The translations under genes were made by a program, and so were the position numbers. A DNA stretch of 56,120 nt from Welwitschia mirabilis (taxonomy: Eukaryota), in NCBI GenBank assembly GCA_051453625.1, contig JBOZIK010000001.1:4638787-4694906 (forward strand), given 5' to 3'. The notes under the pieces were generated by a model, which saw only the letters and a list, made by a program, of their open reading frames with translations, was not told the origin of the DNA and did not search any database. Of the stretch, positions 1,887 to 54,397 are shown one piece after another. The first letter of the stretch is position 1. Every line of letters begins with the position of its first letter.

Positions 1887-2055
<169 letters not shown>

Positions 2056-2213
2056 TGAATAACATTATATTTAAATATTCAAATATTCATCTAGAATAAT
2101 AACACTGCTTGGCATCATAAAAATAATTATAAATTGGATCCCACCTATTGGCTTAAAAGCTAGGTGAAGTTCTAATGATTCAACTCTAAAACTTTAGGAC
2201 ATTACATACTGAC

Positions 2214-2243
2214 CTCTAAACCCTAAACCCTAAACCCTAAACC
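2214..2243 (+). repeat. Short interstitial plant telomeric tract, (CCCTAAA)x3 plus one variant
   Basis: CTCTAAA CCCTAAA CCCTAAA CCCTAAA CC is the Arabidopsis-type telomere repeat. Confidence 0.9.
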
Positions 2244-2480
2244 AGAGCATTCGAGTTAGTTGTCGAACTTCATAACTTTGTTATTAGAGTGTCAAGTCTG
2301 AACAAGCTAAGAGATAGAGCGAGTTTGAAGTTTTGCAATTATAGAACCTTTAGGGTGTTATATTTGGTAACAAATCATTAAGTTTAAGAAGATTTTCAAC
2401 AGTCAAACTTTTGGATCATTTCATTTGGAATTAGATGTTAAAAATAAAGATTTTTCGACAATAGAATTTTAGGCCACTAC

Positions 2481-2872
2481 AAAAGGACTGTGTTGGACTC
2501 ATCATGACAAATATTTTACCAAATGCTATATAACAATCTCCACCAAACACTACAAGACAACCTCTACCTAATGCTAAATGACGAAGAGTCTACCTAACAC
2601 TACTACAACCTTGTCATACCTCTATCACATGTCTTCCAATGCTACAGCTATGTGTATCCCTCTGATTTCTTCATTGCCACTATTGTTTTATGTGGAATTA
2701 TGTTTATCTTCCACTCTGTGTGGTAAAATGTGACCAAAGATCTATAATTATTATAGGAAAAAACATAATATTAAATTTTATTTTAAATAATAAATTAATA
2801 AAGTAAGTGTCTTTTCCTATGATAAATTAATCAATTATACTTACTTAAAATTTTAATTTTGGCATGCAAACA
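2481..2872. mobile_element. Truncated foldback insert (part of spacer plus right arm)
   Basis: Ends GGCATGCAAACA|TACAC at 2872. 2600-2872 is the reverse complement of 5118-5412. Confidence 0.8.
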
Positions 2873-3350
2873 TACACCTTTTCATCTTTTCTTCTTAACT
2901 GAAAAATAATGGTTTGTGGTTCATCACCAACTTTGTAAGGCTAAGTATAACATGTTACCCCTTACAAGGTAGCCAACTCAACCTCTTAGGATTTGAGCTC
3001 ACAACAAAGGTGTTTTTATCAAAACCACACATAAGTGCCATTCCTGGGATGCTACAACCTTGAAATCCAAACTAGACTCAATAGTATGCAGGCCTCCAAA
3101 TGGCCAAAGAATAAGAATAATAACAATGTGAAATTTATAGAGACTAAGAAATTAAATTTTCACTTCTAAGTGCAATAACTTTAAAGGGATCATAAGTAAT
3201 CTAGAGAACAATAATAAATGAATATAACTAAATAACTTGCTTAATTACTAGGAAGAAGAGTATAAAGAATGAGGTTTTAGTTATAACTGCTTTTTCATTC
3301 TCTTGTTCAAAGTGCACTGATGGAAAATATTCTTTTTTATGATATGACTC

Positions 3351-3358
3351 TTTTATAG
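3351..3358 (-). promoter_or_regulatory. Putative LTR TATA box (CTATAAAA)
   Basis: Plus-strand TTTTATAG, downstream of the motif array on the minus strand. Monomers 2 and 3 carry the variant CTACTAAAG. Confidence 0.5.
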
Positions 3359-3614
3359 TCTAGAGAATCTAATCATAGTAATGGAACCTTAATGTTATTC
3401 TTCTTTTTAATTTGTCATGTTTATTTTCTAGATTCTTACTAAAGATTTATGTCAATAATCTTTTTTCCGAGAAATGTTTATTTTAATAATTTATTCGAAC
3501 ATTCTCTTTTTCTTTCTTAGGCTTTTGTTTCCTTTTGATATGGGAACTCTTTACTAGATGGCATGAAGATAGTCAGATCTACACCCTTCAATGTCTATTT
3601 TCTTAATTAGTGTT

Positions 3615-4190
3615 TTATAAACATCTTCAAAAGTGTAGACATCTTCAGATGTAGTAACCATCTTCATCATGTGTAGACTTCTTTAGTCTACAATTGCTAT
3701 GTCCTCAATCACTTTTTAATCAAGATGTATTTAGTCCTACTAGACATCTTTGTGTTGTATAGATGCCATCAATATGTATACACATCTTCAACTCTTAGTA
3801 GTTATTTATGAGCTTCTCATTTTAGTTAAGACATTTTGTCTCTAATAGATGTCTTCTGTCAAACTACTGTGAATTAGCCAAGACATATTTATTAGTTATA
3901 GATGTCTTCATGATGTGTAAAAATCTTCAGTATTCATAAGCATCTTTTGATGATTGTCCCTTTATTTAGCCTAGACATCTTCTCTTTTATAGATGTCTAA
4001 ACGTATAATAGATGTCTTTAACTTGTGTAGATGTCTTTATTGCAAGCTCCTATAGCATATCATATTGGCCAATCCATTAGTTCTAAAACCCAATCTTAAA
4101 AAGTTACCAAATGTCTTGTAGATGTCTTCAATTCTTGTAGATGTTTTTAGTTGTTATAGATGTCTCTCGACGTAGTAGATGTCTTTAAAA
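3615..4190. repeat. Array of ~20 decayed palindromic motifs (TAGACATCTT / TAGATGTCTT, inferred ancestor AGACGTCT) in the U3 of the array LTR; also at ~7370-7920 and ~10415-10633
   Basis: Irregularly spaced motifs upstream (minus strand) of the TATA box, the position typical of Sirevirus repeat motifs. Confidence 0.8.
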
Positions 4191-4280
4191 CACTTGGTTT
4201 ATTTTGCAAATTCATGATTCCTACACACATATGACAATGAATTTGACAAGTTTGGCATAAGAAAACTAGGTAAGTTAATA

Positions 4281-4935
4281 ATATCTTCATTTTTCATGAT
4301 GTACAAAACTTGGAAAATCTATTAGAAGTAGAAATTATTAAATTACCAATTTTAATTTGCATTTCAGTAAGAAATTTGATATTATAGATTCATGATAAGA
4401 ATGAGAATTTTAAGCTAATGTTTTTAGAGAATACAATTCAGTAACATTCATATAATTAGTGCAATAGTAAAGATATTGAATTTGAAAACAATGCACTTAC
4501 ACAAAAATACTAGATTTGATTGAGATAAGACAGAAAAGCAATAATTCTAAAAGATAACATAATGCAATGAGAAAACCCTAAAAGACTAATAATGCAAAAA
4601 CATTTTGAATGTCTCCAAAATATCATGGCCATAATGTGCATGAGTAGATGTCTTCAACCAAGTTCTTTGTACCCTCTAATTTTCCTTCTCCTCCTTCTTC
4701 AAATACGTTTTCCTTCTCTTTCTTTTTGGACATTATTTGATCACTAATTACTAAGAGATGCATCAGAAGCATACGGTGCATTTTATAGATCATCATCATC
4801 ACCATTATTCATGTTAGCATAATACTTAGAAGAAAATTCTTGATACATACCATGAGATGATGAGATTTTCTATTGAGAGCTAGAGCTCAGAGATGATGAG
4901 AGCTCATGGAAGCACTACTAGATGTAATTTTAATT
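4281..4935 (-). mobile_element. Sirevirus-type pre-3'LTR linker with two PPT-like motifs (monomer 1)
   Basis: Minus strand GTTTTGTACATCATGAAAAATGAAGATAT|TATTAAC is a decayed GTTTTGTCATCATCAAAAAGGGGGAGAT|TGTT. A second PPT-like ATGTCCAAAAAGAAAGAGAA lies at ~4735-4714. Multiple PPTs are a known Sirevirus signature. No PBS seen. Confidence 0.65.
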
Positions 4936-5117
4936 TGTAAATCTAGATCATTGAACTCAAAGGGGAGGGATGAATGAGTTTTAAATAAAATTTTTAGACA
5001 GATAAAAATTAATAGCTAACAAAAATTAAACATGAAAAACCAAATAGAAGTCTTATTAGATTTAACATGGTTCCTTAACTTGGGTGTTTCACACTTGAAT
5101 GGTTGAAGCTAGTACAC

Positions 5118-6621
5118 TATTAAAATGCCAAAATTGACATTATAAGCAAGTATAATTGATCAATTTAACATAATAAAAGACACTTAATTTATTAATTTAT
5201 CACAAAACGATGTCTTCTATTGTTTTTAAAATAAAATTTAATATTTTGTTTTTCTCCATAATAATTGAAGGTCTTTAGCCACGTTTAACCACACATGGTG
5301 GAAGATGAACATAATTTTGCATAAAATTATAGGGGCAATGGAGAAATGAGGTGGCGACACATAGCTATAGCATTGGAAGACATGTGGTAGAGGTATCAGA
5401 AGTTTGCAGTAGAGACATGTGGTAATAGCATCGGTTAGTAGAGGAATCTGACTTGAAAGAACATGTATCAGACTCATCATGATAAAGATTTTGGCAAACG
5501 CTACATGACAATATCTACTAAACACTATAAGACAGCCTCCACCAAATGCTAAATGATGAAAATTCTACCTAATACTAGAGGACAAAATCTTATCTACCTA
5601 ATGCTACAAGACAACTTACACTAAATGATATAAGACAAAATCTTATCTACCTAACACTAAATGATGAAGATTCCATCTAATGCAACTCAAACCTTTTCAT
5701 ACCTCTACCACATGTCTTCCAATGCTACGGTTACATGTCACTTCCTCATTTCTCCATTTCCACTTTTGTTTTATGTGGAATTATATTCATTTTCCACCAT
5801 GGATTATAAAGTGTGATTAAAGACCTGCAATTATTATGAAGAAAAACATAATATTACATTTTATTTTAAAAATAATAGAAGACATCATTTTATGATAAAT
5901 TAATAAATTAAGNNNNNNNNNNNNNNNNNNNNNNNNNNNNNNNNNNNNNNNNNNNNNNNNNNNNNNNNNNNNNNNNNNNNNNNNNNNNNNNNNNNNNNNN
6001 NNNNNNNNNNNNNNNNNNNNNNNNNNNNNNNNNNNNNNNNNNNNNNNNNNNNNNNNNNNNNNNNNNNNNNNNNNNNNNNNNNNNNNNNNNNNNNNNNNNN
6101 NNNNNNNNNNNNNNNNNNNNNNNNNNNNNNNNNNNNNNNNNNNNNNNNNNNNNNNNNNNNNNNNNNNNNNNNNNNNNNNNNNNNNNNNNNNNNNNNNNNN
6201 NNNNNNNNNNNNNNNNNNNNNNNNNNNNNNNNNNNNNNNNNNNNNNNNNNNNNNNNNNNNNNNNNNNNNNNNNNNNNNNNNNNNNNNNNNNNNNNNNNNN
6301 NNNNNNNNNNNNNNNNNNNNNNNNNNNNNNNNNNNNNNNNNNNNNNNNNNNNNNNNNNNNNNNNNNNNNNNNNNNNNNNNNNNNNNNNNNNNNNNNNNNN
6401 NNNNNNNNNNNNNNNNNNNNNNNNNNNNNNNNNNNNNNNNNNNNNNNNNNNNNNNNNNNNNNNNNNNNNNNNNNNNNNNNNNNNNNNNNNNNNNNNNNNN
6501 CATTTTATTTTAAAAATAATAGAAGACATCATTTTATGATAAATTAATAAATTAAGTATCTTTCCTTATTCTAAACTAATCAATTATACGTGCTTAAAAT
6601 GTTAATTTTGGCATGTAAACA
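5118..6621. mobile_element. Foldback insert A: ~295-bp inverted arms, ~270-bp spacer, TSD TACAC (~860 bp after gap collapse)
   Basis: TACAC(5113-5117)|TATTAAAATGCC...GGCATGTAAACA|TACAC(6622-6626). Left arm 5118-5412; right arm from ~5683. Confidence 0.85.
5913..6500. other. Assembly gap, probably spurious (contig overlap)
   Basis: 5857-5912 is identical to 6501-6556. Collapsing the gap restores colinearity with monomer 3. Confidence 0.85.
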
Positions 6622-8013
6622 TACACCTTTGAATCTTTGCTTCTTAAGTAAAAAGTAGCAATTTATGGTTCATCACAAACTTTGCAAATTACCCCTTACA
6701 AGGTAGACAACTCAACCTCTTAGGGTTTGAGCTCACAATAAAGGTGTTTTTCTCGATAATACACATAAGTGCCATGCCTGACATGTTATAACCATGAATT
6801 CCAAACTAGATTCAATAGCATGCAGGCCTCCAAAGGGCTAAGAGATAAGAATAATAATAATGTGAAATTTATAAAGAGTCTAAGAAATTAGATTTTTACT
6901 TATGAAGTGCAATAACTTTAAAGGAATAATCAGCAAGCTAGATAACAATAATAAATGAATATAACTAAACAACTTGCTTAATTACTAGGAAGAATAGTAT
7001 AAATAATGAGATTTTAGTTATAACTACTTTTTCATTCTCTTCTTCAAAATGTAGTGATGGTAAATATTCTTTTTTATGATATGACTCTTTAGTAGTCTAG
7101 AGAATCTAATCATAGTGATGAAACATTATTATTCTTATTCTTTGTAAGTTGTCATGTTTATTTTCTTGATTCTTGCTAAAGATTTATGTCAATAATCTTT
7201 TATCCTAAAAATGTTTATTTTAATAATTTATTCAAACATCCTTTTTTTCTTTCTTCTGCTTTTGTTTCCTTTTGATATGAGATCCCTTTACTAAGTTTTC
7301 ATTTGAAGGGAGACATGCAAATAGTCATATCTACATTCTTCAATGGCTATTTTCATAATTAGTGTTTTATAGACATCTTTAAAAAGTGTAGAGATCTTCA
7401 AATGTAGTAAACATCTTTGTCATGTATACACTTCTTCAGTCTGTAGTTGCCATGTCCTTGATCGTAGTTTAATCAAGATGTATTTCGCCCTATTAAACAT
7501 CTTCATCTTATGTAGATGTCATCAATTTATGTATATATCTTCAACCCTTGGTAGTTATTTATGAGCTTCTCATTTTAATTAAGACATTTTATCTCTAATA
7601 GATGTCTTCTGTCAAACTACTGTGAATTAGCCAGGACATCTTTATTAGTTATAGATGTCTTCATGATGTGTAAAGGTCTTCAAGATTCATAAACATATTT
7701 TGATGATTTTCCCTTTTTTAGCCTAAACATCTTCTTTTTTATAGATGTATAGACATATAGTAGATGTCTTTATTGCAAGCCACTGCAGCATATCATATTG
7801 GCCAATTCATTAGTTCTAAAACCTAATCTTAAAAAGTTACTAAATTTCTTATCGATGTCTTTGATTCTTGTAGATGTCTTTAGTTGTTATATATGTCTCT
7901 TGAATTAGTAGATGTCTTCAAAACACTTGATTTATTTTGCAACTTCATGATTCCTATACACATATGACAATAAATTTTATAAGTTTAGCACATTAAAACT
8001 AAGAAGGTTAATA

Positions 8014-8665
8014 ATATATTCCTTTTTATGATGTACAAAACTTGGAAAATCTATTAGAAGTATCAATTGTTGGCTAACCAATTTTAATTTGAATTTAGTA
8101 AGAAATTTGATATTGTAGATTCATGATAAGAATAAGAACTTTAAGTTGATGTTTTTAAAGAATACAATTTAGTAAAATTCACATAATTAGTGAAATAGTA
8201 AAGACATTAAATTTGATAATAATGCACTTGCATAAAAACACTATATTTGATTTAGATAAGGTAGAAAAATAATAATTCTAAAAGATAACATAATGTAAAA
8301 AAAAAAAAAAACCTAAAAGGCTAATAATGCAAAAACATTTTGAATGTCTCCAAAATATCATGGCCATAACATGCATGAGTAAATGTCTCCAAGAAAACTC
8401 TATAAACCCTTTAATTTGCCTTCTCCTCCTTCTCCAAATACATTTTCCTTCTCTCCCTTTTTGAACATCATTTGAGCACTAATTACTACGAGATGCATCA
8501 CAAGCAGATGGTGGATAGATCATCATCATCATCATCATTCGTGTCACCATAATACTTGGAGGAAAATTCTTGATATGTACCATGAGATGATGAGATTTCC
8601 TATTGAGAGCTAGAGCTCAAGGATGATAAGAGCTCATAGAAGCACTACGAGATGTAATTTTAATT
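8014..8665 (-). mobile_element. Sirevirus-type pre-3'LTR linker (monomer 2)
   Basis: Homologous to 4281-4935. PPT relic at 8014-8027 and TGATGTTCAAAAAGGGAGAGAA (minus) at ~8470-8449. Confidence 0.65.
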
Positions 8666-10633
8666 TGTAAATATAGATCATTAAACTCAGAGGGGAGGGG
8701 TAAATGAGTTTTAAATAAAATTTTCAGAGAGATAAAAATTAATAGCAACAAAAATTAAAACATGAAAAACCAAATAGAAGTCTTATCAGATTTAACATGG
8801 TTCCTTAACTTGGGTGCTTCACACTTGAATGGTTAAAACTAGTATATTATTTGCATGCCAGAATTAACATCTTAAGTAAGTATAATCGATCAATTTAACA
8901 TAAGAAAAGATACTTAATTTATTAATTTATCATAAAATGATATCTTCTATTGTTTTTAAAATAAAATTTAATATTATGTTTTTCTCCATAATAATTGCAG
9001 GTCTTTAGCCACATTTTACAACACATGGTGGAATATGAACATAATTCCACATAAAACAATAGTGGTAATGAAGATATGAGGTGGTGACACGTTGCTATAG
9101 CTTTAAAAGACATGTGGTAAAGGTATTAGAAGACATATGGCAATAGCATCAGTTGGTATAGGAATCCGACTCCAAAGGACATGTGTCAAACTCATCATGA
9201 CAAAGATTGCATAAAACGCTACGTAACAATCTCTATCAAGTACTATAAGACAACCTCCATAAAATGATAAATGACAAAGATTCTACCTAATACTGACACT
9301 ACATGCTATAAGATAGAATTTTACCTACCTAATGCTAAATGACGAAGAGTATACCTAATGCTACTGCAACCTTCTTATACCTCTACCACATTTCTTCCAA
9401 TGCTATAGCTACATGTAGCCACATCATTTCTTTATTGCTACTATTATTTTATGTAGAATTATGTTTATTTTTCACCGTGTATTATAAAACATAGCTAAAG
9501 ACCTATAATTATTATGGAGAAAAACATAATATTAAATTTTATTTTAAAAATAATAAAAGACATCATTTTATGATAAATTAATAAGTTAAGTGTTTTTCCT
9601 TATGCTAAATTGATCAGTTACACTTGCTTAAAATGTTAATTTTGGCATGCAAACATACGCCTTTGAATCTTTGCTTCTTAACTCAAGAATAGTGGTTTAT
9701 GATTCATCACCAACTTTACAAGGCTAAGAATAATAAGTTATCCCTTACAAGGTAGCTAACTCAACCTCTTAGGATTTGAGCTTATAACAAAGGTTTTTTT
9801 CCTTAAGAACACACATAAATGCCTTGCTTGATATGCTACAACCTTGAATCCAAAATAAACTCAACAGCATGCAGGCCTCCGAAGGGCTAAGGGATAAGAA
9901 TAATAATAAGTAAAATTTATAGAGAGTCTAAGAAATTAGATTTTTACTTTAAAGTGAAATAACTTTAAAGAGGCAATAAGTAAGCTAGAGAACAACAATA
10001 AATGAATATAAATAAACAACTTACTTAATTACTAGGAAGAACAGTATAGAGAATGAGATTTTAGTTATAACAACTATTTCATTCTCTTCTTCAAAGTGCA
10101 GTGATAAAAAAATATTCTTTTTTATGATATGACTCTTTAGTAGTCTAGAGAATCTAATCATAGTGATGAAACCTTATTGTTCTTCTTCTTAATTTGTCAT
10201 GTTTATTTTCTTAATTCTTGCTAAATATTTATGTTAATAATCTTTTTCCCCTAAAAATGTTTATTTTAATAATTTGTTCAAAAATTCTCTTTTTATTTCT
10301 TAGGCTTCTGTTTTCTTTTGATACAGGAACCATTTACTAGGTTTTCATCTGAAGGAAGATATGCAAATAGTCAGATCTACCCCCTTCAATGGATATTTTC
10401 ATAATTAGTGTTTATAGATATCTTCAGAAAGTGTATACATCTTCAGATGTAGTAAACATCTTCATCATGTATAAACTTCTTCAGTTTATAATTGCTATGT
10501 CCTCGATCGTAGTTTAATCAAGAAGTATTTAGTCCTCTTAAACATCTTCATGTTGTGTATATGTAATCAATGTATGTAGACATCTTCAACCCTTGGTAGT
10601 TATTTATGAGCTTATCATTTTAGTTAAGACATT
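8666..10633 (-). mobile_element. Sirevirus-like LTR, copy 3, 5'-truncated at ~10633
   Basis: Colinear with copy 2 from TGTAAATATAGATC (8666) until homology stops after TAGTTAAGACATT. Confidence 0.7.
8848..9655. mobile_element. Foldback insert B (808 bp, gap-free)
   Basis: TATAT|TATTTGCATGCC...GGCATGCAAACA|TACGC. Left arm 8848-~9131 pairs with right arm 9361-9655. Flanks are transition variants of TACAC. Confidence 0.88.
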
Positions 10634-11399
10634 ATGGATTCCATTCCTTCCAAATGACTTTTCAACTAGCTCATAATTTAAATTTCTTGTAAAAAAACAT
10701 AGTTAAAATAAAAAACATAAAAATACAAAAACAAAAAAATAATATGTGTACATATGTGTATTTAAAAAAATACCAACAAAAATAAAACAAACTAAGAATA
10801 AACTATTAGGTTACTTACCTATCTAAAATACAAAGGACAAGATTCCTAATGATCAAAGTACATCACATAAATGGATTCATGCAACTAAGTAAAGTTTCAA
10901 TAGCTAACCAAAAGCCTTAGCTTATTACATCTCTCATGAATGCTTTCAAAGTGTAATATTTCAAAAATTTTCAAAAACCTTTTCCAAAAAAAAGGAGATT
11001 AAAATCTCTTTTAAATAGTTCATGCTTTTACTTTTTACCTATTTTGATCAAAGTATCCTATGATGTTTTTAGTGTCTTCTTTTTGTTTAATCCTCATTAT
11101 TACTCTTATGTCAATCCCTTGACTTGTAGAACATTATTATGATAAGGAGTTTGTCAAATCAGCTCTTACATTTCACTCTTGATGATGAGCTTGTTGAAAG
11201 GTATATCAAGCTCAACCTTCTTATTATATTAATTCCCTAGGAAAACCTTGTATCTTCTCAAATCAAGAGCAAATAAGTGAAAACACTAAGGCATATGAAA
11301 CAATGAAGTCATAACATGTAAAATCATCTCTAGTAAAATAACAAGATATCACAACACATGACTTCCTCATAAACCCATTAGTCAAGAAAAATCTCTTAA

Positions 11400-13178
11400 G
11401 ATTAATGAATAACTACTATAATAGACTAAATCTAAGCTAAAAAATGTGTTATCTTCTAATCAAGACATCTTTACTTATCATTATAAAGATATGCTAAGAA
11501 TTGACAAATTAATAGTTATGCATAACATTGTTCTAAATCTAAACTCGATCCCTGTGAGATAAAAGATTAGAAAGCTAAACCCTCATCTTGTATTAATGGT
11601 AATACAAGATCTAGGAAGTCTTTTTATTTTTCATTTTATTTGAATAGTAGACTATTCAGATTTGCTATCAAATATGGTGGTCATTTCAAAGAAGAAAAAC
11701 TAGATTAGTATTTGTATTGATTATCATGATTTAAATAAGATTACCTTAAAGGACACCTATCCTTTGCTAAACCTCAACATCCTTGTAGATAACACTGCCG
11801 GTTATGTTACAATAAGATATTTATTAATCTTGTAGATTAACAAAAAATAACTTTTATAATACCATGTTATCTCTTATGTTACATCATGATGCCTTTAGAT
11901 TTAAGAACGCTAGTACAACTTACCAGTATGCAATGACACATATCTTTAATAACATGATCCATCGTAATATGAAAGACTACGTTGATGATGTTGTAGTTAA
12001 GTCAAAGATAGTTGTCAATCATTATAATGACTTAAATTAACTATTCACATAAGTAAGATGATATAATTTTCACCTAAACCCAAAGAAATGTATGTTTTAT
12101 GTGTAATCAGGAAAACTCTTAGGATTCATGGTATTGAAATAAGGCATAGAAATTGATCTTGATAAGATCAAGACAATCATCGATATGCCATCACCATGCA
12201 ACTTGAAATAGTTATGTAGTCTCCAAAGTAGACTACAAGTAATATGTTAATTTATTTTACCTTTAGCAGATCGATGTGAACCATTTATGCATTTACTCAA
12301 GAAAGACAATCAATTTAAGTGGAAAAAATTATCAAAAGGCTTTTGATAGAATTAAGGAATATTTGACATACACCCCTATTCTAAGTCCACCTAAGCATGA
12401 TCAACCATTATACCTTTACTTGACATATACATCATCATCAATTAGTGCAATGATCTTTCAACATGATGAATTACATCAAGATCGCTTGATTTATTACATC
12501 AGTAGGATACTACATCAATATGAGAGAAATTACACTAAAGCAGAAAAGGCATGTTTGAGTTTAGTTTTTGCTTTGTAAAAGTTTTTTTATTATATGATGA
12601 CAAATAAAAAAAACTATGATTAATAATTAGAATTTGCTCAAACATTTCCTTGAATACATTACTAGTAGCACACATTTAACAAAGTGGGCGTCGATTCTTG
12701 CAGAATTTAACTTAGACTTCCAATCTCAAAAATCAGTCAAGGGAAAATGCATAGCTGAACAAATGGCAGATATACCAATAGAAGCTGAAGGTAAAACCTC
12801 TAGAAAATTTGAATAATTTTCTAATAAATAAATTCATATTTTCAAAATGAAAAATAATTGGGATGCATTAATGTTTTTTATGGTATATCCAACCGAAATG
12901 GTGGATTTGTAAGAGTAGTCTTCTTCCTTAATAACAAAATTATCTTGCCATTATCTTTTAAACTAAATTTTCATTGCATAAACAAATTTATAAATATGAG
13001 TCTTTAATAAAATAAATCATTCCAACCATTCAAGCAACTTTCAAGAAATTATGCATTTTGGATGACTAACAATTATTTGTCAACCAAGTCTTAAGTAAGT
13101 ACGAAACTAAATCAGTAATATTAAGTACATACCTTAGAAAAGTAAGAAATTTCTTGAATTATTTAAGTCATTTGAAAT
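11400..13178 (+). pseudogene. Ty3/gypsy Tat (Ogre/Retand-like) pol relic 1: RT, RNase H and additional RNase H
   Basis: ICIDYHDLNK, YVDD (11978-11989), PILSPP..YYISR..YTKAEKACLSL, KW..L.EF, then an aRH-like SFKLNFHC region. Many stops and frameshifts; ends at an N-gap. Confidence 0.88.
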
Positions 13179-31385: not shown

Positions 31386-32834
31386 TTTCTACTATGAATT
31401 AATGTTATTCATTATAATAAAATGCAAACCTCAAATAAACTGGTAAGAACCCAGCATTTTTCTTCCACAATGATATTTATGGTAAACTAATCCAAAGGCA
31501 ACATAATAATACAATTCTATAATGTAATTAAATAAAAGGGAAAAAAACTAAGGATTTGAGAGATTTTAGTAAACTTCTATTAGTAATGTAGGAAGATGAA
31601 CATGCTATAGTGGTTTAGCTTGTCTTACCTAACTACCCACTTTTACTCTAATGATTTCCTATAAGTCCTAAAACATAAGCTTCAAATCATCAAGTCATGG
31701 TGGCTTGAGTGTGGTGACATAATCTCATTCACCACATGAGTGTTAGTATAGAAAGTAAGTATGATCATCCTTAAGATCTATAACACAAAAGTGACTATAG
31801 CTAAAATGTAAACTTAAAGAATTCACTTGGTTCTAAAGATCCTGATGATGTAGTCTCATCTAAGGATTAATAGTACATGTTAATGTGCATTACAAATTAA
31901 AGAATAAATAATTATTCCAATATTATAAATAAGAAAGAATCTCACCTAAGAATTAATAGTACCATGTTAATGTTCACTAAACATTGAAGAATGATAACTA
32001 CTCTTTATATTAGTTCATTAAATACATTATGTCAATATAAAAAGATTAATCTAAAATGAACTCCTTAAACTAGCCTCAAATCAAGTTCACTCCTAAGGAA
32101 GATGCTTAGAAAACTATGATGTTTTGACACTTCAGGTATTCCCACCACATTTTTTCAATCAAATATTCTTTATAATGAGGGCTTAAGGCCCTTTTTTTAG
32201 GTGAGGGAAGGCTTGGAAAACTTTGGCATGTTGTGGTTGGTGGTGGTTACATAAGCGGATTATAATTTTCAGTGGCTACATTAGGAGGAGGTTATAAAGT
32301 TTGTCATGTAGCCTTAATGGATGATTCCTTATATTTTTATGTAAACAAGGTGATCACATGTCCTTTGAGTGATCATGTAGCTTCCACTAAATGCGATGCT
32401 ATATGTTCTCCATTTTATTGTACTTGTTGTTACCACATGTGACTTTTATATGTTAATTTGCACCTTTGTCATGTGTCATCAAGGTTTAAAGGTTAAATTC
32501 GATTTAACATTCAACTAGTCTCACAAGTAAAATATGATGTCTTTCCCATAATGATGTGAAAAATGTAAGAATAAACTCCTTTTATCATAAAAAACCACTG
32601 CTGCTAGTGACTTGAATAGTAACGTCGATGTTTTCTAATGGATTATCTTCAAACTTCAGCATGTTCTTTAAAAAGTAGTAGTTATCTTGAAAATGTTATG
32701 AAAAATTTTATATTTTCATAACTCATGATAAAAATGGTAGAAGACATAATTTTATGATAAAAATGCTATTTTAATATATTTTCCTGTGTTAAATTAATTA
32801 GATATACTTGGTTCTTAATTTTTGCACGTGTACA
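31386..32834 (-). repeat. 3' LTR of Athila-like element
   Basis: Colinear with 41629-43122 (e.g. TAGGAAGATGAACATGCT, AATGAGGGCTTAAGGCC). Confidence 0.88.
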
Positions 32835-34784
32835 CAACTTGTAACTAGAATTTTATTAGTCTCTTGACAAAATGTTGATAAAGAAATGATCAAACTTAAA
32901 AAAATTTATCTAAATAAAATATTCAAGTATGAAAATGATACAACTTTGGAAAAATTTTTCATCAATTTGTGGAAAATAAGGCATTAAAATTTTGAAAAGT
33001 TCTACGACAAATGAATGGTATACCTCATAACCAAAACTAAACTTTGTCCTTAAAGTTAAAAAGATATAAAAATTCAATACAATGCTTTTGAAAACAAGTT
33101 AAAGTATTTTAAAATAAAATTTTATATTACATGGCTTTTCATATAACAGGTTATAAAATTATTTTGATATAAGCAATTTAAAACTTTATAAAAAACTATA
33201 ATGCAAAAATGCTAAACTGGCATGCAAACATTTTATTACAACATACTTAAAAAAATTTTAAAATAATATAATAAAACACACTTTAATTCACATAATAAAA
33301 TGCAAAAGTTAAATGAAAAAAAGCGTTGCATAATAGATAGGTGCTTCGTTGTAGTATTAAAAGAGTAATGAACTTTATAGATGTGGGGATTAAAGATAAT
33401 AGCTAGATCATCTAAACTAATTAATGATCAAGATGAATTATAGTAAGGATTGAGGTATGAATTGATAGATCTTTTTAAGAAAAACATAGTTATGTTTCTT
33501 TGGTGTATTTTATCTCATAAAGTAACATGGTCAAAATTGCAATTTAGGGAAAACAAAACATGAAATATAATGAGGAAAACTCATTAATCATAAATCCAAA
33601 AGACACAAGACCTAAGTTAATAATATTAAATATTTTAATATTTTAATTCTAAATTTAAATAAATCACAATACAAAAAAAAAAAAATCTTCTAAGTAAAAC
33701 TCTAAAAATCTAAAAATTAGTTGAGTAAATCCTCAAGTACTCAAGTTCAAAAAAGAAATTACAAGAAGCATCTCCAAATCCCACATTTTCTTTCTAATTT
33801 TTACCTTTTTGAAAATCATATTTATTCCTTGTTTTAAGCATTTAGATCAAATCAAGCATCCAATATTATGACATCTTATTCCAATAGAACTACGCATGTT
33901 GTTTTATGAAGAAGTCATTGTTGCATTACTAGTAAGAATTTATAGCCCCAATACATTTAAACATGTCATAAAATAAATCATTAGAGCCACATTACTAGTG
34001 AGTTTTCATAGTCCAAATGCAATTAACTAAATCTAATTTTAATTAACCAAATCATAGTGTAATTTTAGAAAAAGACATATTTTATTTTCTTTTAATTTTT
34101 GTTTCTCATATTCAATATTTTTATGCGCATAGAAAGGGAACATTAGCACATTATCTTAATTAAGAAAAATTGTGTCCCACAAAATGCTTAAAAACATGAA
34201 ACATAATATGAATGTAGTTTACACGTTTTTAGCCACAATTTCTGAATTTGAAGATCTTAAGTGATATTAACCTTTACAAAATAACTTAAAAATAAGAAAA
34301 ATCTTTTCTTAAAAACTACAAGTAAACTTAGATTCTACATCACTTAAAATAACAAGGTGATCACTTATTAATGATTTATTTATTATGGATCATTAGCCAG
34401 CATTACCAATTCTTAGGGACTCATGGATGCATGGTAATGATGGGTGGTTTTTGCACTTAATGAGGTAACTAAAGAATAAAGTGGATGTATGGAATGGTTT
34501 GAATGGGTTGTGATAGTTATGATTATTAATGAAAAAAAAATCTTGGAATTTAATGAATCAGTTACGCTTTGAAAGGTGTTTCTATGGGGGAGTTTTTTGA
34601 AGGAATGAGAGGAGAAAGTTTGAAAAATATTAGGGTTGTGAGGCTTAAAATCTTGACTATTTAAAAATAAAATAAAATAGATATCATTTTTATGAATAGA
34701 CTCTACACATACATGTAAAAACTTTGAAAGATCATCAAGGATGCAAATCGAAGAATCTAAATTTTAAAAGTCAGAGCTATTCCA

Positions 34785-35282
34785 TCATATTATATTTCTA
34801 TGATTTCCTAATAAGTCATTGAAACGAGAGTCAAATAGATTAAAATCATTATGAGAAGAATGGGATTCAATAAAAGAAGGATCAAGATCATGAATTTCAT
34901 ATACAAAATTGGCCTTATTATTATTCCCTGAAAGTTCCACAATGTTAAAAATATTCAGATCCATAATTAAGTTACCAAAGGAGATTTTCATATGACCATT
35001 TAAACAATTAATAAGGGAATTTAATGTTGCTAGAAATGGTTTTTTCTAAAACGACTAGAACTAAGTTTTACTTTGTTATGATTATTTTTAAGACAATAAA
35101 ATTAATTAAAGAATAATAATTATCCAGTCACATGATTATGCCTTTAATAATTCTTAAGGACAATTTTAAAGAATTATCTATTAATCATAATGGGATTTTA
35201 GTATTTTTAAGATTATTAAAGTTAAGTTCCTTATAAACTAAGTGGAGTGAAAGATTGATTCTTACTCCTAAATCTAACAAGG
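34785..35282 (-). pseudogene. Aspartic protease relic of Athila-like element
   Basis: LLDLGVRINL (~35280) and PFLATLNSLINCLNGHMKISFGNLIMDLNIFN. Confidence 0.8.
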
Positions 35283-38200
35283 TGTGATACCCTATCTTTA
35301 TCCATGCTAATTAAGCATTATTTTTTTCCTTTCCTTCATTCTTAAATATTATTATCTAATAGACATAGCAAAACCTAGAATCAAATTTTACTTACTTGTT
35401 TTTTGGCACTTTTATATTTGGAGAAAAAATAAATAATGTTGTTATTATATATTTATTTATAATTAATTCCTAAGTTACTTTGGTTTATAAATAATAGCGA
35501 TGTTATAAGTTTATGTCCTTCATGTGTTCCTAGCTTTTTATCCCATAGAAAAATATCTTGTAAATAATTAAGGAGAGGTAAACTTGTTATAAACATACAT
35601 AAATAAGTTTAAAGATAATACCTAATCAATATAATAGGAGGTTGCAACTTCCATTAATGGCATTCCAACTCGTTATCTAGCCACTCTCCAAATGTGATTT
35701 GGTTTTACTTCAAGTTTTAGACTACACAAACATGATTGGGTTGAACTCCATGGACTTTCATTTCATCTCAATATACCCCTAATACAGGTAGTAGGTGGTA
35801 CATGAGGTGGATGCATGCTTACAAATACGCATTTTTCCTTAAAACATTTGAAAATGATGCAACATGATCCATTAATTCCAAGGGCTTAAGATACTAAGTT
35901 GGATTATATTCATACATGGGTAGGATAGGAGAGTGATGATCAAATCTGCTTCTAGAAGGGTATTATTAAAAAACAAATGCCGCTACCCACCTTAGTGATG
36001 AAATCCAAGTGTGGGAATGATTATTATTAGAATTATCTTGATTATTGTAAGATGAATGCACCACACAAATGCATGCTTATAATTCTAACTAATGTGGATA
36101 TTTAATGGATTGTTTACCTAGTTGTAATAATTCTAATCATCATTAGGTTCATTTTATAGAAAGAGTCATAAAAATAAAACAAACACACTAGAACATCTCT
36201 ATATTTAAGATTACAATAATGAAAATAAAAATAAAAGAAATATTCTTTTCTTTTCTATCTTTCATAATAATAAAAACACTTTAAATGTATCAAACCACAT
36301 GTTATTAATGAACTTAAAGAAACTAAAACATATCTAAAGCTATGCCAATCTTAGAAACATTATTTCATGCTCATATGATGATCTCCAAGGATTAGTGTAA
36401 TGAAAGTAAATAAAAGAAGGTATAGCTCAAGCATAATTATTATTATATAACTCTTTATCCAAGATTCATATGTCTATATTATATTTCAATAAAATAAGTG
36501 ATAATCCAAATACTATTTATGTTACTTAAACTACTAAAGTAAAAACTCTTACAAATACACACATTCAACAAAAGATAAAGAAGGAAAAAAATTTAAAAGA
36601 GGTATTTCTATAAATCAAATATTAGTTCTAGATAATTTAACTTAAAGTTACTGATAGAACATATTTTATATACTCAAATTTTCTATCAATGTTTGTGTAA
36701 TAATTTTTCTATAATTAAAACATTAATTATAACATTTTTATGCTCTAAGGAGACATCATAGTCAAAAATTAATAATTAATTAATTATAAAGTAAAAAATA
36801 AATTACATTAGTTCTATATAAACCAGACAATGAGAGGATCCTCAAAATCTAACTTAAACTATCTTATAATTCTAAAAATATTATTTCTAAGTTCATCATT
36901 TAAGTTTAAAAACTATCAAATTTTCTAAAATTATAGTCTTACCGCACTACACTAAAATGACCATAACTTTCAAAATAATGTGACTTTTTAAATGATTCAA
37001 GATGTTTTGAAATTTTAATTTAATTTTCCACAACTTAGGAGGCTCAAGTTTGTAGATATCTTAATAACTAGTTACAAAAATGTAAATTAATTGCTTACTA
37101 TTTTTTGCATTTATTTTCTAATGTATTTTGAAAAATAATTTTTTAAAAATAATTAAGCATTAGAAATATTACTATTTTTACATTTCCATGATCATAACAT
37201 AATCTTAACCTTACAAAAAAATTTTTACTAATTTATACCTACTAATTAATAAGGTATGGTATTTTTATCCTATGTCTCAATCCTAGAAATTTAATTTTTC
37301 ATTGTAACAAAAATATGATAAATTATCTATAACTAATTATGAAATAATTTAAATTAATAAAATAATGGATATAATAACTAATTATCTATGGAATATCTTA
37401 ACTAAATTACTAATTTGGATCTTTGTAAAAAGAAAAATCAAATCAATTTAAAAAGAACCTTTTACTATAAGACTTAGGGTTTCTGTGAAAGAGTACTAGC
37501 CTAAAAGAGATTTTTAAGGATTAAACTTTACCTCTAATAAGATAGACCTAATGCATAATGAATGAAAAATATATTATATGTCTATTAAAATAAAATAAAC
37601 ATGGGCACTCAAGTATATGGTGAATCCCTATAGTGGTCATTTAGCCATAAACATCCATAAGCCAATGGGAGGAAATAAAATATGTTTATGATATATCATA
37701 AATAGTGGTTTAATGCAAGTATTGTAGCATTCTAATAAAGATTTAAAAGAGACTGTATGAATAATATGAGTAAAGAGCTTACTTAGAAAGATAATAACTC
37801 CTTGATAATTGAACACTAATGAAGATTCAAGCTCAAGAGTTCCTTAGCTCCAAGCTTCCAAGCTCAAATCTCCACAAACAAGATAAAGAAAGAAAGAGAG
37901 AGAGTAAAGAAGGAAATGCATTTGTGTTAAAAAAAAATGGAAAGTATCTTCTCTTTGCAAGAAAGGAAATGATCTATTTATATAGATAAACAAACACACA
38001 TAGCTCAATATCACAATACTACATGATTTAGCATTGATAAGATGGCTAATAAATGACATTAGAGTATAAAAAAAGATCATATTTATGACTCATGCACTTA
38101 GATAGGATGAGTAATCTTATCACTTTAATTAGAAAAGGTTAATTACATGCGTCATTTCCTCATGTTGACTCTTTATTAATCCTTCCTAATTTTAATTCAT

Positions 38201-38819
38201 CTAAGACATGCATCAAAAGAATAAATGCACAAATATTAAAATGGTCATGTGGCATAATAGATAAACTTTTCAATTTTAATGAATAAAACAATGAGTATGC
38301 TATGAACCCAGTGCCCTTACACATCTCAAAAATATAAGAGTCATGGTAGAATAAATCTACTCATTTATCATTCTTGGTTCGAGGTAAAAGTGCATGTACT
38401 TATTCATATGCTCATTTATTTCATAGTGCATAAAATCTATTAATCACATAACATAAGGAAGAAAATGTTGATCCATAATATAGTACACCTATCACATTTA
38501 CTAAGAATTTAATAGTAAATAAGATTTAAAATATATTACTAAGTCCTCTAAAAATTTTCAAGGTATTAGTTTTATCATGTGACTTTAATTCCCAACATAT
38601 TGGATTATTTAATTTTAAATGTTTGGATAGCTTTTTTAATAAAAACCTTTTAACGCAATATTTATTATTTTCATGGTAAAATTTAAAAATTACAAAATAA
38701 TGTTAATTTAAAATTCCATCTTATGTTTATAAGGCTTTTAAATAAGAATAATTAACCATTTGATTAAAAGCTTAATATACTTAATATCTAAGAAATATTA
38801 AGAAATATGGAATATGACA
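35283..38819 (-). mobile_element. Probable solo LTR (~3.5 kb, Tekay/Del-like) inserted at the start of the protease
   Basis: Begins TGTGATACCC and ends GGAATATGACA. The host frame joins across it (IRDKHLKQ|LLDLG). Weak TSD CAAGG/TATGG; minus-strand TATA CTATATAAATAG (~37985); no coding motifs. Confidence 0.55.
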
Positions 38820-40900
38820 TTATGGTTGCTTAAGATGTTTGTCTCTAATNNNNNNNNNNATTATGATAGCAATTTTGGGACATCAAAGATATTTATATGT
38901 AGAAGATATTTGATCTTGAATTATTATGCTCATTTGCTAAGCTAACAAGGCATTTTTCTTAACATGTATATTTCTCTTAATCATACACGTATCTTTGAAA
39001 ATTATGCATGTGAAGGGATTTGTCTATATACATCTAATAATGGCATGTTAATTTTACCTTTTTAAAAAAAATCTTTAAAGTTTCTAATTATTTATTTTCA
39101 ATGTTCTTCTTCCTAAGTTATTGTGGGAAGAATAGAAGTTCTTAATAATTAAGTAAAAATTATTCTAAAAATTTTTCCTTCTTACTATTTTCTTTGGGGA
39201 TTGATTCTTTGTTAGTGACATTTTGCTATAATTTTTTAATTTAATTCTTTTCCACTCTTAAGATAAATGGTTCTAGATATTTGATATGTTTGGGATCTAA
39301 TCCTTCTATGAATCTAAATCCTCTAGGATTTGGCTATGAACTTGTAGGGAATTTACCAGGTTCTCTTTGGTTTAAAGAAGAGAGAATTTATTGAAGCACT
39401 CAAGTATTAGTTTTAAGAAGTTTTTTTAAGGGTTCTTAAGGTGGAGGAATGTTGTTTAAGAGTTATTTTATGGTCATAGTTAATTTGAGTATAAACACAG
39501 TTAATATAAACTTAGATGTCCATGACTTTTCTCAATGATTCCTCTAATTGATTAGATGATGAAGGTTTTTAATGGATGAATGATGATGGGAATGGGATTA
39601 TTAATTGACTAAAATGATTTTGGTCATGGAAATTATTATATCACCAAGAAAAGTTGGAATGGTTCTTCCACCTAGGATTCTAAGAGTTTTAAATTAGAGG
39701 TTTTTTACAATTTTATCACTAGTATCCTATGATACTAACTTATTCATTTATATTGTTTTAAAAAAGGGGTATAAAAGAACATGTGTGTATTTTATGAGAA
39801 TCTAAATGGAAAATAAGGCATTTAGATGTAAATGCTAATGGTTTAGATGGGGTGAAACTGAGTTCTACTCTTTTTGATGATTAATTTATTTGATTGTTGA
39901 TATTAAAGTTCTGTAAAACTCAAAAAACCCTAGTTGATCTAATGAATGGCTGAAATCTAAGTTGTTTAATTAGTCTTCCCTAGTTCTTAAAACTTTTGAC
40001 TACTATTTCAAGGTAATACCACACTTTATCTAATGGTAAACTAAGGAAATTACCTCAAGTCATTATTTGAACTAATTATTTATTAATGATAGATTGTTCA
40101 TCATAAAAGAAATTGATCTCTCTAACTAGCTTGAGTCCATATTGTAAGTGATTTGAAGAAAATCCTTAAGCCCTTTAAGGCTTGGGGAAAAAGTTTCATG
40201 ATTTTTTTTTACTTGATAATTTATTATCTATAGTATTAGAGCGCTTTTTTTTTGTGGTTTAAAAAAACATTGGAAATAAAAGATTTATTTAAATTAATCC
40301 ATGTTCTAATTGATAAGTATTTAAGGATGTAAACCAAAGATTAGCTTTTCTTTTAAGGAGAATGAGAAAAGGGTAAGTCTAATAATATCATAGGTGTTAT
40401 GGCATTGTAGAGTAGTGTATAGCACACATTTAAATTCCTTAATATGGAGATAAAATCTTCTAATTATAAGTTAATAAAGTATGGTAATAACTAAGTTATG
40501 AATGGTTAAAATGTAATATATTAGTTGTCAATGATTGAATTATATGTAAGAAGATTCCTAAAAATTGGATTTATAAGTAATCCCATAAGGTTTATTTAGA
40601 GGGATTAGGTTGGTTTTAGTCAAGGTTTTGAGCTACCTCTTGACTAAGGTAGTAGGCATGTAGGTTGTCTATAAGTCCTTGGTTTAACCAAGGTATATTA
40701 AGAGGGCATTAAAAATTAGATTAGGCATGTTGATTTTATTTTGAAGTGGACGCTTATTCTCCTTGGGGATTGTCATGAGGTTGATTTTTGAATGAAACAT
40801 TTTGTTCTTTATTTCTTTTAGTGTTAGAATTCATGTTAATAAAGGGGTTTTTAACTAATTATCTTAGTTCATCTTGGATCTACAGAATGCAATTTTTAGA
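38820..40900 (-). pseudogene. gag relic of Athila-like element
   Basis: Minus strand DIIRLTLFSFS..KEKANLWFTSL (~40390-40320). Confidence 0.75.
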
Positions 40901-41604
40901 CTTGGTTTAGATAGGTCCTAGATGATAGATAGGTTTTTAATAAGTTATAAAAGGTTTAGTTTTAATTTTACGAGGCTCTACTTAGAAAATTTGATGGAAC
41001 AGGTTAGGGAAGGTGGTGACATCGATTAATTTAAAAGTTTTAGTTTGGAAAAATAACCATAGGATTATAGAGCTTATGTAAAACATTGAGACTTATAGGG
41101 TGACAGAAACATCTTATAGAAAAATAAATATGGCAAAAAACTTAACTAAAACCTATAAAAAACAAACCCTAAGCATTTTTAACTTTAGAAATTTTATCAG
41201 AAAATACAATAAAAACTAAATTTTTATTAAAAAATTTATTAAAAATATACAATGTTAGATTTCAAATTTAGTTTCTCACTTTCTTCTGATCTTGACTTTG
41301 GTTGTGATCTATAGAAACATTGTTACATCTATAACCTAAAATATCAAATATGGATATGAATTTTATTTTTAAAATAAAAACTAAATAATACTCAAAATTA
41401 GACTAGCTCAAATTTCACTGTAAAATGACTAGTACTAAATATTAAAGAGAAAAGAAAATAAAATAAACACTCAAGAGAAAACAAAAAGGACTAGTTTAGA
41501 TTTTAGTGGAAATGAACTAATACCAATCAATAGAAAAATAAAAATGAATTTAAAAAATTGTAAGAAAAAAATTATGCAACTTTTGAAAAGTTATCATGCT
41601 AATA

Positions 41605-41622
41605 TCCCCAACAACAATTCCA
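41605..41622 (-). promoter_or_regulatory. Decayed Athila-type PBS (tRNA-Asp)
   Basis: Minus strand TGGAATTGTTGTTGGGGA vs TGGCGCCGTTGCCGGGGA. Confidence 0.75.
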
Positions 41623-41628
41623 AAGATT

Positions 41629-43122
41629 TATTCACTATGAATTAATGTTATTTATCATAGTAAAATGAAAATATCAAATAAACTAGTAAGGATCCAATAT
41701 CATTATTCCACAAGGATATTTGTAGGAAGATAATCAAAAAGTGACACAATAATACAATTCTATAATAAAATCAAACAAAATAAAAAAATCCAACTATTTG
41801 AGAGGTTTTAGTAAATTTTTCTTGGTAACATAGGAAGATGAACATGCTCAAGAAGTCTAGCTAGGCTTGTCCAACAATCCACCTTTGCTCCAATAATTTT
41901 CTGTAAGTTCTGAAACATAAGCTTTAAATCATCAAGTTGTGGTGGTTTGGGCATGATGACAGAATCTCATTTACCCTATAAGTATTAATGAATTGAATAG
42001 TCATTTTAGTCCTTCATGGCCCTATATGACCATAAAAAGTTAAGTCTAATTGTCTTTAAGATCTATAACATAATAGTGACTATAATCAAAAAGTAAACCA
42101 AGAGAATTCGCTTGATTCTAAAGATCTTAATGATGTAGTCTCACTTAAGGAGCAATTTACCATTTGAATGTGCATTAAAAAATAAATAATAAATAACTAA
42201 TTCAATATTGTAAACAATAAAGATTCTCATCTAAGAATTAATGGTATCATGTTAACATGCACTAAAAATGGAAGACTGAATAACCAATTCTTGTATTAAT
42301 TAAAAAAATACATTATGTTAAGAGAGGAAGATTAAGTAAAAATGGACTCCTCAAACTATCCTTGAATTAAGTCTGCTTCAAAGAAAAGTATGTAGGAATC
42401 CATGACATCTTAATTTTATAAGAATTTTTAACACATTTTTCTAACTGAAGTTCTTTACAATGAGGGCTTAAGGCCTTTTTATAGATAAGTGAAGGCTTGG
42501 AAAGCTTTGGCATGATATGGTTAGTGGTAGTTACATAAGGGAAGTTACACTTTTGGGTAGTTAAATTAAGGGAAGATTACAAAGTTTGTCATGTAGCATT
42601 AATGGATGATTCCTTGTCTTCTTATGTGAAAAAGGTGATAACATATTTTTTGATTGATGATTTAGCTATCAATAAATGTTATGCCATGTGTCCTCTATGT
42701 CATTGTGCTTGTTACTACCACATGTTGCTATAATATATCAATTTATGTCTTCACTATGTGTCATCAAGATTGAATATTGAATTTGATTTGACATCTAACT
42801 GAGTCCATAAGTAAACTGTGATGTCTTTCTCATAAAGATGTGAGAACACAAGAATGAATTCCTTCTGCCCTAAAAGATTAGTGATGCTGGTGATCGGGAT
42901 GGTGGTGCTAAGGTTTTCTAATGGATTATCTTCAAAATTTATTATGTTCTTTAGAAAACATAAATTATCCTTAAAATGTTATGGAAAAGTGCATATTTCA
43001 ATAATTCATGATTAAAAGGAAAAAAGTCATAATTTAATGGAAAAAATTACTATATAATATTTTTACCTATGATAAATTGGTCAAATATGCTTAGTTGGAA
43101 TGTCAATTTTTGCATGTAAATA
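41629..43122 (-). repeat. 5' LTR of Athila-like element
   Basis: Colinear with 31386-32834. Minus strand begins TATTTACATGCA and is followed by the PBS. Confidence 0.88.
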
Positions 43123-53149: not shown

Positions 53150-53515
53150 GGGGGTCAACCAAATCCTAGAGGAGTCGATCATACCTAACTCAAACACCAC
53201 AGAGATGAACTAAACCCAGAGGGGTCGACCAGATTCTAGAAGGGTCGACTGGACTTGTGATATTAAGAACCAATAGTTCCAGACCGAGAGGAATTAGGTC
53301 GACCGGATATTTATGGGGTCGACCAGATTTGAGGAGCTGACAATCAAGTCCTAGACTAAATGGAAAGGGGTTGACTAGACCCAGGATGAAATCAACCGAA
53401 CTTGAGAAGCTGTCAAGTCCATAGTTCCAGACTGAGAGACAAGGGGTCGACCAGATCTAGGATGGGGTCAACCAAGTTCCTATGGGATTGACTGGATATT
53501 TATGGGGTCGTCTAG
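53150..53515. repeat. Sirevirus U3 palindromic repeat-motif array (GGGGTCGACC, ~12 copies)
   Basis: Intact GGTCGACC at ~53223, 53297, 53317 and 53445, plus transition variants. Confidence 0.88.
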
Positions 53516-53631
53516 ATAGTATGGAAAAGTAAATCATGTAGATATTATATATCCATTACCTAGTCATTTTCTATCTGTTTATAGCTGTTAGAGGTGCAAT
53601 TCAAATGTATCAAACCCTAGTAACCCTCCAT

Positions 53632-53639
53632 TATAAATA
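53632..53639 (+). promoter_or_regulatory. LTR TATA box
   Basis: TATAAATA downstream of the repeat-motif array. Confidence 0.7.
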
Positions 53640-54397
53640 CCTAGGCAAGAGATGACCTAGAGATCTTTTTAGCACATTTTCAAATTGGTATATTTGGTGT
53701 GGATCTAAAAGATCAATTAGCACATTGCATTGGAATATCTATTGTACTTCTTCATATCTAATTAAGGAGATCTATTCTTGGATTAGGCCATTACTCAGAA
53801 TCGAATCTAAGGATCTCATCACTGTATTCATTTGGAGAAGAGCTCCATTCTATGTATTGATACTAAACAAGTGATATCAGAGCTATGAAGGCTTCATTGC
53901 ATCACTTCTATTCATTGTTAAAGGTTAAGGATTAGCCTACAAAAGTCCATTGCCAAAGGTTGAGACTTAGCTTGGAAAATTCTATTGTAAAGGTTGAGAC
54001 TTAGCCCGTAAAAGTCCATTTGTAAGGGTTAACAGGTGAGCCTAGAAAAACCTATTAAGTAACAGAGATCTAAGATCAAGCTTAGGAGAAGCTGATCATC
54101 GAGAGTGGAGTAGGGGAGTTCCAGAACCACTATAAATCCTGCGTGCATCCAAACTGGTAGTTTCTATTTTATGGTTTATACTTTGTTTCTATTTATTCTT
54201 TGTATACATGATTGTGATTTCATTATTCGTTTATATGCATTATATGATTAGAATTTGTTAAGTTATTTTGAGTTTGAAGTTTTTGTAAATGAACCTATTC
54301 ATCCCCTCCCTCCCAGGGTTCTTGATCCTATTATTTGATACCAATGCATAGGTTAGTCTTTGAGCGATCTTAACAGATCTAGACTAAGAACCCTTAA

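Follow-up and report, generated by a model that had tools for sequence, protein, structure and literature searches.

A foldback insert of about 0.8 kb, found in the stretch of Welwitschia mirabilis DNA analysed here (56,120 nucleotides, hereafter the window), carries at both of its ends sequence matching the U3 end of Athila-like LTRs, and at one of its copies it is bounded by an exact 5-bp repeat. We consider it probable that a pair of U3 ends, supplied either by a fold-back cDNA or by two cDNAs that were later joined, was inserted by integrase at a single target site. The insert would then record a one-off aberrant integration by the integrase of an Athila-type LTR retrotransposon, with U3 at each of the two joined ends.

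The window is AT-rich, with a GC content mostly of 22–35% per kb, and is filled with decayed LTR retrotransposons; all four short ORFs tested are Pfam fragments, namely of gag, protease, RNase H and copia pre-integrase. Self-comparison reveals a tandem array at about 2480–10633 whose repeat unit comprises the foldback and about 2.2 kb of host sequence, with 86.5–88% host-to-host identity between units. The array is composed as follows.

2480–2872, minus strand: foldback copy C, truncated, with part of the spacer and the right arm, followed by an exact TACAC at 2873–2877
2873–5117, minus strand: host unit 1, parts of a Sirevirus-like LTR plus a linker of about 0.7 kb
5118–6621: foldback copy A, 860 bp without a false N gap at 5913–6500; left arm at 5118–5412
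6622–8847, minus strand: host unit 2, sharing 88% identity with unit 1
8848–9655: foldback copy B, 808 bp, delimited by inverted-arm search, alignment and fold
9656–10633, minus strand: host unit 3, truncated at 10633

The host LTR is one that we take to be Sirevirus-like, in part from its motifs, and its left flank weakly matches a copia-type LTR at 53040–54340 (z 4.2–4.3). The 588-N gap in copy A has the same 55 bases on both sides and is an assembly artefact. Copy A, which measures about 1.5 kb with the gap included, is therefore corrected to 860 bp, and its hairpin arms probably caused the break in the assembly.

About three telomere-like CCCTAAA units lie at 2214–2240, some 250 bp left of the array edge, and a plastid psaA fragment of 20 codons occupies 1993–2052 (best E 2.6e-07 to photosystem I PsaA), beside a stretch of about 80 bp that is duplicated locally (approximately 1886–2005). 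Direct-repeat pairs at 11243–11656/13279–13693 (79%), 13695–13974/18532–18811 (83%) and 11651–13178/18812–20373 (70%) are probably nested Gypsy elements, and an RNase H fragment is found at 12267–12578. The copia-type element at 53040–56120 has a PBS-like stretch, gag and pre-integrase fragments, and an LTR end motif that we presume to be Sirevirus-like. An Rfam search of 2000–11000 gave no matches.

Copy B can be divided into two arms, a spacer and an inner join.

8848–9132, plus strand: left arm, matching the U3 start of an Athila-like LTR in forward orientation; begins TA
9133–9360, plus strand: spacer, read as the forward U3 continuation; matches Athila LTR positions of about 360–580 and ends in short tandem units
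9361–9364: fold-back join, where the final spacer unit and the inverted arm overlap in CTAC
9361–9655, minus strand: right arm, matching a second U3 start, inverted, 295 bp, with its CA end on the plus strand

The original prediction described an insert of about 0.8 kb with inverted arms of about 295 bp, and both inverted-arm search and alignment bear this out. In copy B the arms at 8850–9132 and 9371–9653 are 85% complementary over 283 nt and align at 84.5% over 291 columns; 35 of the 43 arm-to-arm substitutions are transitions. The left arm of copy B is about 12 bp shorter than that of copy A, at its inner end. Folded as a single strand, copy B reaches −190 kcal/mol against −64 ± 5 in shuffles, none of which (0 of 20) is as good, and no ORF of at least 90 amino acids overlaps it. 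At 808–860 bp, non-coding and bounded by terminal inverted repeats, the foldback has the form of a MITE; plant MITEs usually have target-site duplications (TSDs) of 2, 3, 8 or 9 bp. Lacking a TATA-like box, R, U5, PBS and ORF, it is incapable of copying itself by reverse transcription.

The arms were proposed to derive from the U3 ends of Athila-like LTRs in the window, a claim that holds against shuffled controls. Aligned with the U3-first strand of these LTRs, the arms give z values of 5.9–18.7 in all eight comparisons (60 dinucleotide shuffles), and the alignments start at base 1–9 of both sequences and reach to about 145–220 at roughly 65% identity. Against the U5-first strand, z is 0.5–3.0 in all eight comparisons, and none of these alignments lies at the U5 terminus. 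When 364 window tiles were scanned with the arm, the four best were the two U3 ends (scores 109–142), followed by a tile at 66.5, with a median of 39. This weak match, at about 32950–33230 in the 3′ region of the Athila-like element, ends in the motif GGCATGCAAACA and is possibly AT-rich noise. Ordinary LTR cDNA terminates in U3 on one side and in U5 on the other, with its LTRs in direct orientation; the insert departs from this arrangement, as both of its ends match U3. The parent LTR itself is absent from the window, and its relatives there are only about 65% identical to the arms.

These relatives flank an element at 31388–43122 that we take to be Athila-like, partly from gag-pol motifs.

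31388–32834, minus strand: Athila-like 3′ LTR, with its U3 start at 32834; 76% identical to the 5′ LTR
41633–43122, minus strand: Athila-like 5′ LTR, with its U3 start at 43122, a TATA-like box at LTR position 639 and a PBS-like stretch at 41622–41610

The ORFs of this element are heavily decayed, and the assignment of the arm-matching LTR ends as U3 draws on three modest signs: the PBS-like stretch, a minus-strand protease and the TATA-like boxes. The Athila PBS motif is given as TGGCGCCGTTGCC just past the 5′ LTR (bioRxiv 10.64898/2026.03.20.713144). The PBS-like stretch, separated from the LTR end by 11 nt, agrees with it at 7 of 13 letters, with five of the six differences being C>T or G>A; the window contains 20 matches of equal grade, so that the stretch is a weak sign by itself. 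The protease match on the minus strand scores 85 against a shuffled maximum of 62, and the TATA-like boxes are 639 and 635 positions from the two U3 ends. For the same element, gag and RNase H queries gave no score above shuffles, Pfam found no families in six minus-strand frames, tblastn returned no match and the best tblastx E value was 0.012. The Athila LTR ends in the window have a short terminal inverted match in common. The protease-like frame at 35346–35082 (minus strand) lies far downstream of the gag-like region, a position that suggests either rearrangement or the nesting of a second element.

Alignment of the interior adds a feature beyond the original prediction, in that the spacer, too, appears to be U3, running on forward from the left arm. 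Positions 225–515 of copy B match LTR positions of about 360–580 in forward orientation with z values of 5.7 and 6.3 (3.9 and 4.9 for copy A), against 0.2–2.4 for both copies in reverse; the spacer alone gives 2.1 and 3.5 forward and 0.1 and 1.0 in reverse. The forward continuity is thus read from z values of 2–6, because the parent LTR is not in the window. At the inner join, CTAC matches the GTAG at 5409–5412 that ends the copy A left arm at base 295. Because the spacer continues U3 forward and the right arm is inverted from the CTAC join, the insert is best read as U3 positions 1 to about 517 joined, via a 3–4-nt overlap, to inverted U3 positions 1–295. The palindromic U3/U3 molecule proposed earlier accordingly keeps its two U3 ends but gives way to an asymmetric fold-back of about 517 plus 295 nt whose spacer would also be U3.

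Homology to the Athila LTR ends near position 580, before the TATA-like box at 635–639, and the complete U3-R-U5 of a solo LTR is not present. The sequence between the arms is of U3 type, unlike the interior of an LTR retrotransposon, TRIMs and LARDs included, in which a PBS and a polypurine tract (PPT) lie between two LTRs. A PBS-like match at 9151 (minus strand), at the arm–spacer border, which would cast the arms as leader sequence, was rejected: it is not kept in copy A, where the TGG start is missing, and the window has about 20 matches of this kind. The tandem spacer units at 5560–5690, 9255–9360 and 2540–2590 vary in number between copies, with copy A having about 42 bp more than copy B, and their number varies also among family members in reads.

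The outer ends of the insert were examined together with their flanks.

5113–5117, plus strand: TACAC left of copy A, exact
6622–6626, plus strand: TACAC right of copy A, exact
8843–8847, plus strand: TATAT, left flank repeat of copy B, matching TACAC at three of five positions, with two C>T
9656–9660, plus strand: TACGC, right flank repeat of copy B, matching TACAC at four of five positions

All three right termini end in AAACA (GGCATGCAAACA in copies B and C, GGCATGTAAACA in copy A), and the left termini begin with TA, not TG (TATTTGCATGCC in copy B, TATTAAAATGCC in copy A). The TG..CA termini ascribed to the insert are therefore present as CA at 3/3 right ends, but both left ends are TA, one transition off; the Athila 5′ LTR in the window shows TG>TA at its U3 start as well. 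A TACAC TSD had likewise been claimed, and the pair is exact at copy A, where a 5-of-5 match has a chance expectation of 0.001–0.002, but decayed at copy B. We regard TACAC as a candidate target duplication. The proposed fit of termini and 5-bp repeat to an LTR integrase draws support from the CA ends and from the exact TACAC at copy A.

Placing the host flanks on the LTR at 53040–54340 gave one flank pairing that implies the neighbouring positions 54075 and 54085, and three other flanks that imply 54109, 53803 and 54166 and are inconsistent. An empty-site joint, at which the host sequence would go back to its uninterrupted state, was not seen among the 15 of 262 read joints listed. A search with the 20-nt terminal pattern found no matches in viral contigs, and its sole match in a metagenome contig was dismissed as chance, the locus having 51% GC and being otherwise unlike the window.

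All three foldback copies in the window (3/3) occupy one site with the same flanks, in a tandemly amplified LTR, which agrees with the earlier proposal of a single insertion event later copied with the array. Identities between arms are 87.0% for left–left, 84.7% for right–right and 82.6–85.6% for left–right comparisons, and the arm phylogeny is star-like, with nine two-versus-three splits of 2–4 sites each, mostly transitions. Because arm-to-arm identity is close to the host-to-host identity, a single insertion shortly before the duplications is suggested, and the divergence pattern would fit one insertion soon followed by tandem amplification of the host. Tandem amplification of LTR-retrotransposon sequence is a known behaviour (PMC11899658).

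Twelve sequencing runs contain the region, none of them listed as RNA, which has no bearing on expression. Four were compared over 6622–9365, from a single host unit through the left arm to the spacer; the compared stretch stops at the inner join, and summed contig depth is not copy number. In 4/4 runs, contig depth steps from 70–106 in bin 8738–8829 to 2,760–10,013 in bin 8830–8921 and is 1,600–77,000 through the spacer end. Host bins are mostly below 150, with exceptions at 7910–8093 (up to 1,387) and at the LTR-end motif (8646–8737). Variant sites in the arm and spacer are mostly covered by about 55–126 contigs per run, with three near 9300 having fewer, against 0–29 at host sites; at spacer positions 9187 and 9240, another letter is present in 93–110 contigs of each run. 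Arm and spacer are thus members of a very abundant family whose edge coincides with the insert edge, and the host has few close relatives. Because depth steps up at the insert edge and stays high through the spacer, that edge marks a terminus of the abundant family.

Among the 24 of 3,588 loose ends listed, the commonest is at 9363 (71–89 contigs per run, agreement about 0.6), and it continues with more spacer-type units, not with the inverted arm, as the parent LTR would. No strand-change joint appears among the 15 of 262 joints listed, and no second insertion site of the foldback among the 32 of 36,756 pieces and 24 of 3,588 loose ends listed. One contig of run X2 spans 8703–8882 with 21 differences, exactly the number that separates copies A and B there, and the left junction of copy A is therefore present in reads. 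Run X3 (organism B) contains an orthologous host unit over 6622–8701 at about 98% identity, with 4–12 differences per 236–535 bases; none of the X3 contigs listed bridges the insert edge.

Two routes could bring a pair of U3 ends to one site. In the first, a plus strand primed at the polypurine tract would stall in the tandem units near position 517 and pair through CTAC/GTAG at about position 295, on itself or on a second plus strand, and copying back to the U3 end would yield a linear duplex with two U3 ends. In the second, a single integration complex would receive a U3 end from each of two cDNAs, whose inner ends would be joined by microhomology; alternatively, an inverted dimer would have lost its centre. 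By either route, integrase would produce the 5-bp duplication in the Sirevirus-like LTR, which would soon afterwards be amplified to three tandem units. Integrase reportedly accepts two U3 ends in Ty1 artificial transposons, and older virology and yeast work is said to have integrated U3/U3 substrates in vitro.

Replication, rather than integration, might have produced the inversion, a course of events that we consider unlikely although at one locus it would yield an anatomy identical to that from the joining of two separate cDNA ends. An ordinary Athila insertion or solo LTR would have made the 5-bp duplication. In a later template switch during replication, the strand would have turned back on itself at CTAC, U3 would have been copied backwards, and the short terminal inverted repeat would have allowed rejoining at the U5 terminus, with replacement of R-U5 and the intervening sequence. 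Known processes would thereby account for the single locus, for the microhomology where the inner ends meet and for a TSD that is exact, and the terminal inverted match between the Athila LTR ends in the window is available for the second step; moreover, host polymerases are described as appending viral sequence of either strand at aberrant HIV and ASLV ends (PMC5041404). Two switches are nevertheless required, and the second must hit the terminus precisely, guided by only about 4 bp of homology. Left and right arms are also set apart by one or two transversions beside the join, hinting at two templates, a hint that is weak because other arm splits have 2–4 sites each. Recombination between inverted LTRs can be discounted on logical grounds, as it flips the middle and leaves one U3 and one U5 at the outer ends.

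More doubtful still is membership in a family of non-autonomous inverted repeats, resembling MITEs or Ginger/TDD elements, for which Athila U3 ends were the source and an integrase-type enzyme the means of movement. The great abundance of both arms and spacer in reads is what such a family would produce, but it is accounted for equally by the parent LTR family, and the loose end at 9363 runs on into spacer units with no strand-change joint among those listed. Full-length copies could hide beyond the listed pieces and loose ends, given that the compared stretch ends at the join; the three copies in the window nonetheless lie at a single site, TGTTT at the terminus departs from the TGTNR of Ginger, and the insert has none of the signals for reverse transcription. 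Excision is not a normal activity of LTR integrases. We give least credence to a fusion by deletion of two opposite Athila LTR insertions with a chance 5-bp match, or to a solo LTR from an inversion-bearing LTR subfamily. The surrounding nest of decayed retroelements, the lack of an empty site among the listed joints and the disagreeing host flank positions speak for these readings; against them stand the low chance expectation of the 5-bp match (0.001–0.002) and the abutment of the same host LTR on both outer ends. In addition, an LTR cannot work without a TATA box, R and U5, and the insert stops short of all three (TATA-like box at 635–639).

Should the favoured reading, the joining of two U3 ends by integrase, be correct, this natural two-U3 insertion with a clean 5-bp duplication would mean that symmetric ends are acceptable in vivo to the integrase of a plant Gypsy element and that products of fold-back or two-molecule integration enter the germ line. 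It would also offer a possible direct route from an LTR end to a terminal inverted repeat, a step that is required if Ginger-type transposons stem from Gypsy. As a source of hairpins, the foldback could yield small RNAs against its parent family. As a single, old and dead insertion, it carries little biological weight. There is a slim prospect that the insert instead belongs to, or represents the founder type of, a family of mobile inverted repeats that each combine two LTR U3 ends and depend on a retrotransposon's integrase for movement; such a family would be a living intermediate between Gypsy LTR retrotransposons and Ginger-type DNA transposons, hidden under annotations such as 'MITE' or 'LTR fragment'.

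No published U3/U3 insertion was found in the literature searched, a weak negative given that older virology and yeast work and most subscription journals were thinly covered. Complex LTR-retrotransposon insertions arise from template switching or pre-integration recombination (PMC1950507; bioRxiv 10.1101/452573) and resemble the foldback in their abnormal cDNA, single integration event, 5-bp TSD and LTR ends. They differ in having three direct LTRs with one U3 and one U5 end, whereas the foldback has inverted U3s and no internal region; the word 'inverted' is absent from PMC1950507. In aberrant retroviral integrations, inverted viral sequence can likewise be appended when a truncated end uses short homology to prime on viral DNA close by (PMC5041404), but in those cases integrase joins a single end and the flanks carry deletions or duplications, whereas both foldback ends are precise and bounded by the 5-bp repeat. 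Tandem LTR-retrotransposon arrays (PMC11899658; Cassandra, PMC7215508) alternate LTRs with short internal sequence as the host array does, a likeness that concerns the array and not the foldback.

Among DNA transposons, Ginger2/TDD elements share with the foldback long TIRs, LTR-like termini and, in TDD-4 and TDD-5, a 5-bp TSD; the TDD-5 TIRs measure 297 bp, and Ginger1 has been proposed to be Gypsy-derived (PMC2836005). Unlike these elements, the foldback has no transposase, its TIRs are recognisable as the U3 of an extant LTR, and its terminus is TGTTT, not TGTNR. GingerRoot has 6-bp TSDs and TIRs of 100–150 bp (PMC6839031), compared with the 5-bp repeat and 295-bp arms here. In the window, the only relatives found for the foldback ends are LTRs, with no autonomous Ginger-type partner among them. 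An Athila solo LTR shares with the foldback TG..CA-type ends, a 5-bp flank repeat and a content of LTR sequence only, with no ORF, but the foldback is without R, U5 and the TATA-like box, and its right third is an inverted copy of its left end. The foldback is thus a real, unusual structure, best filed as a variant of aberrant LTR-retrotransposon insertion.
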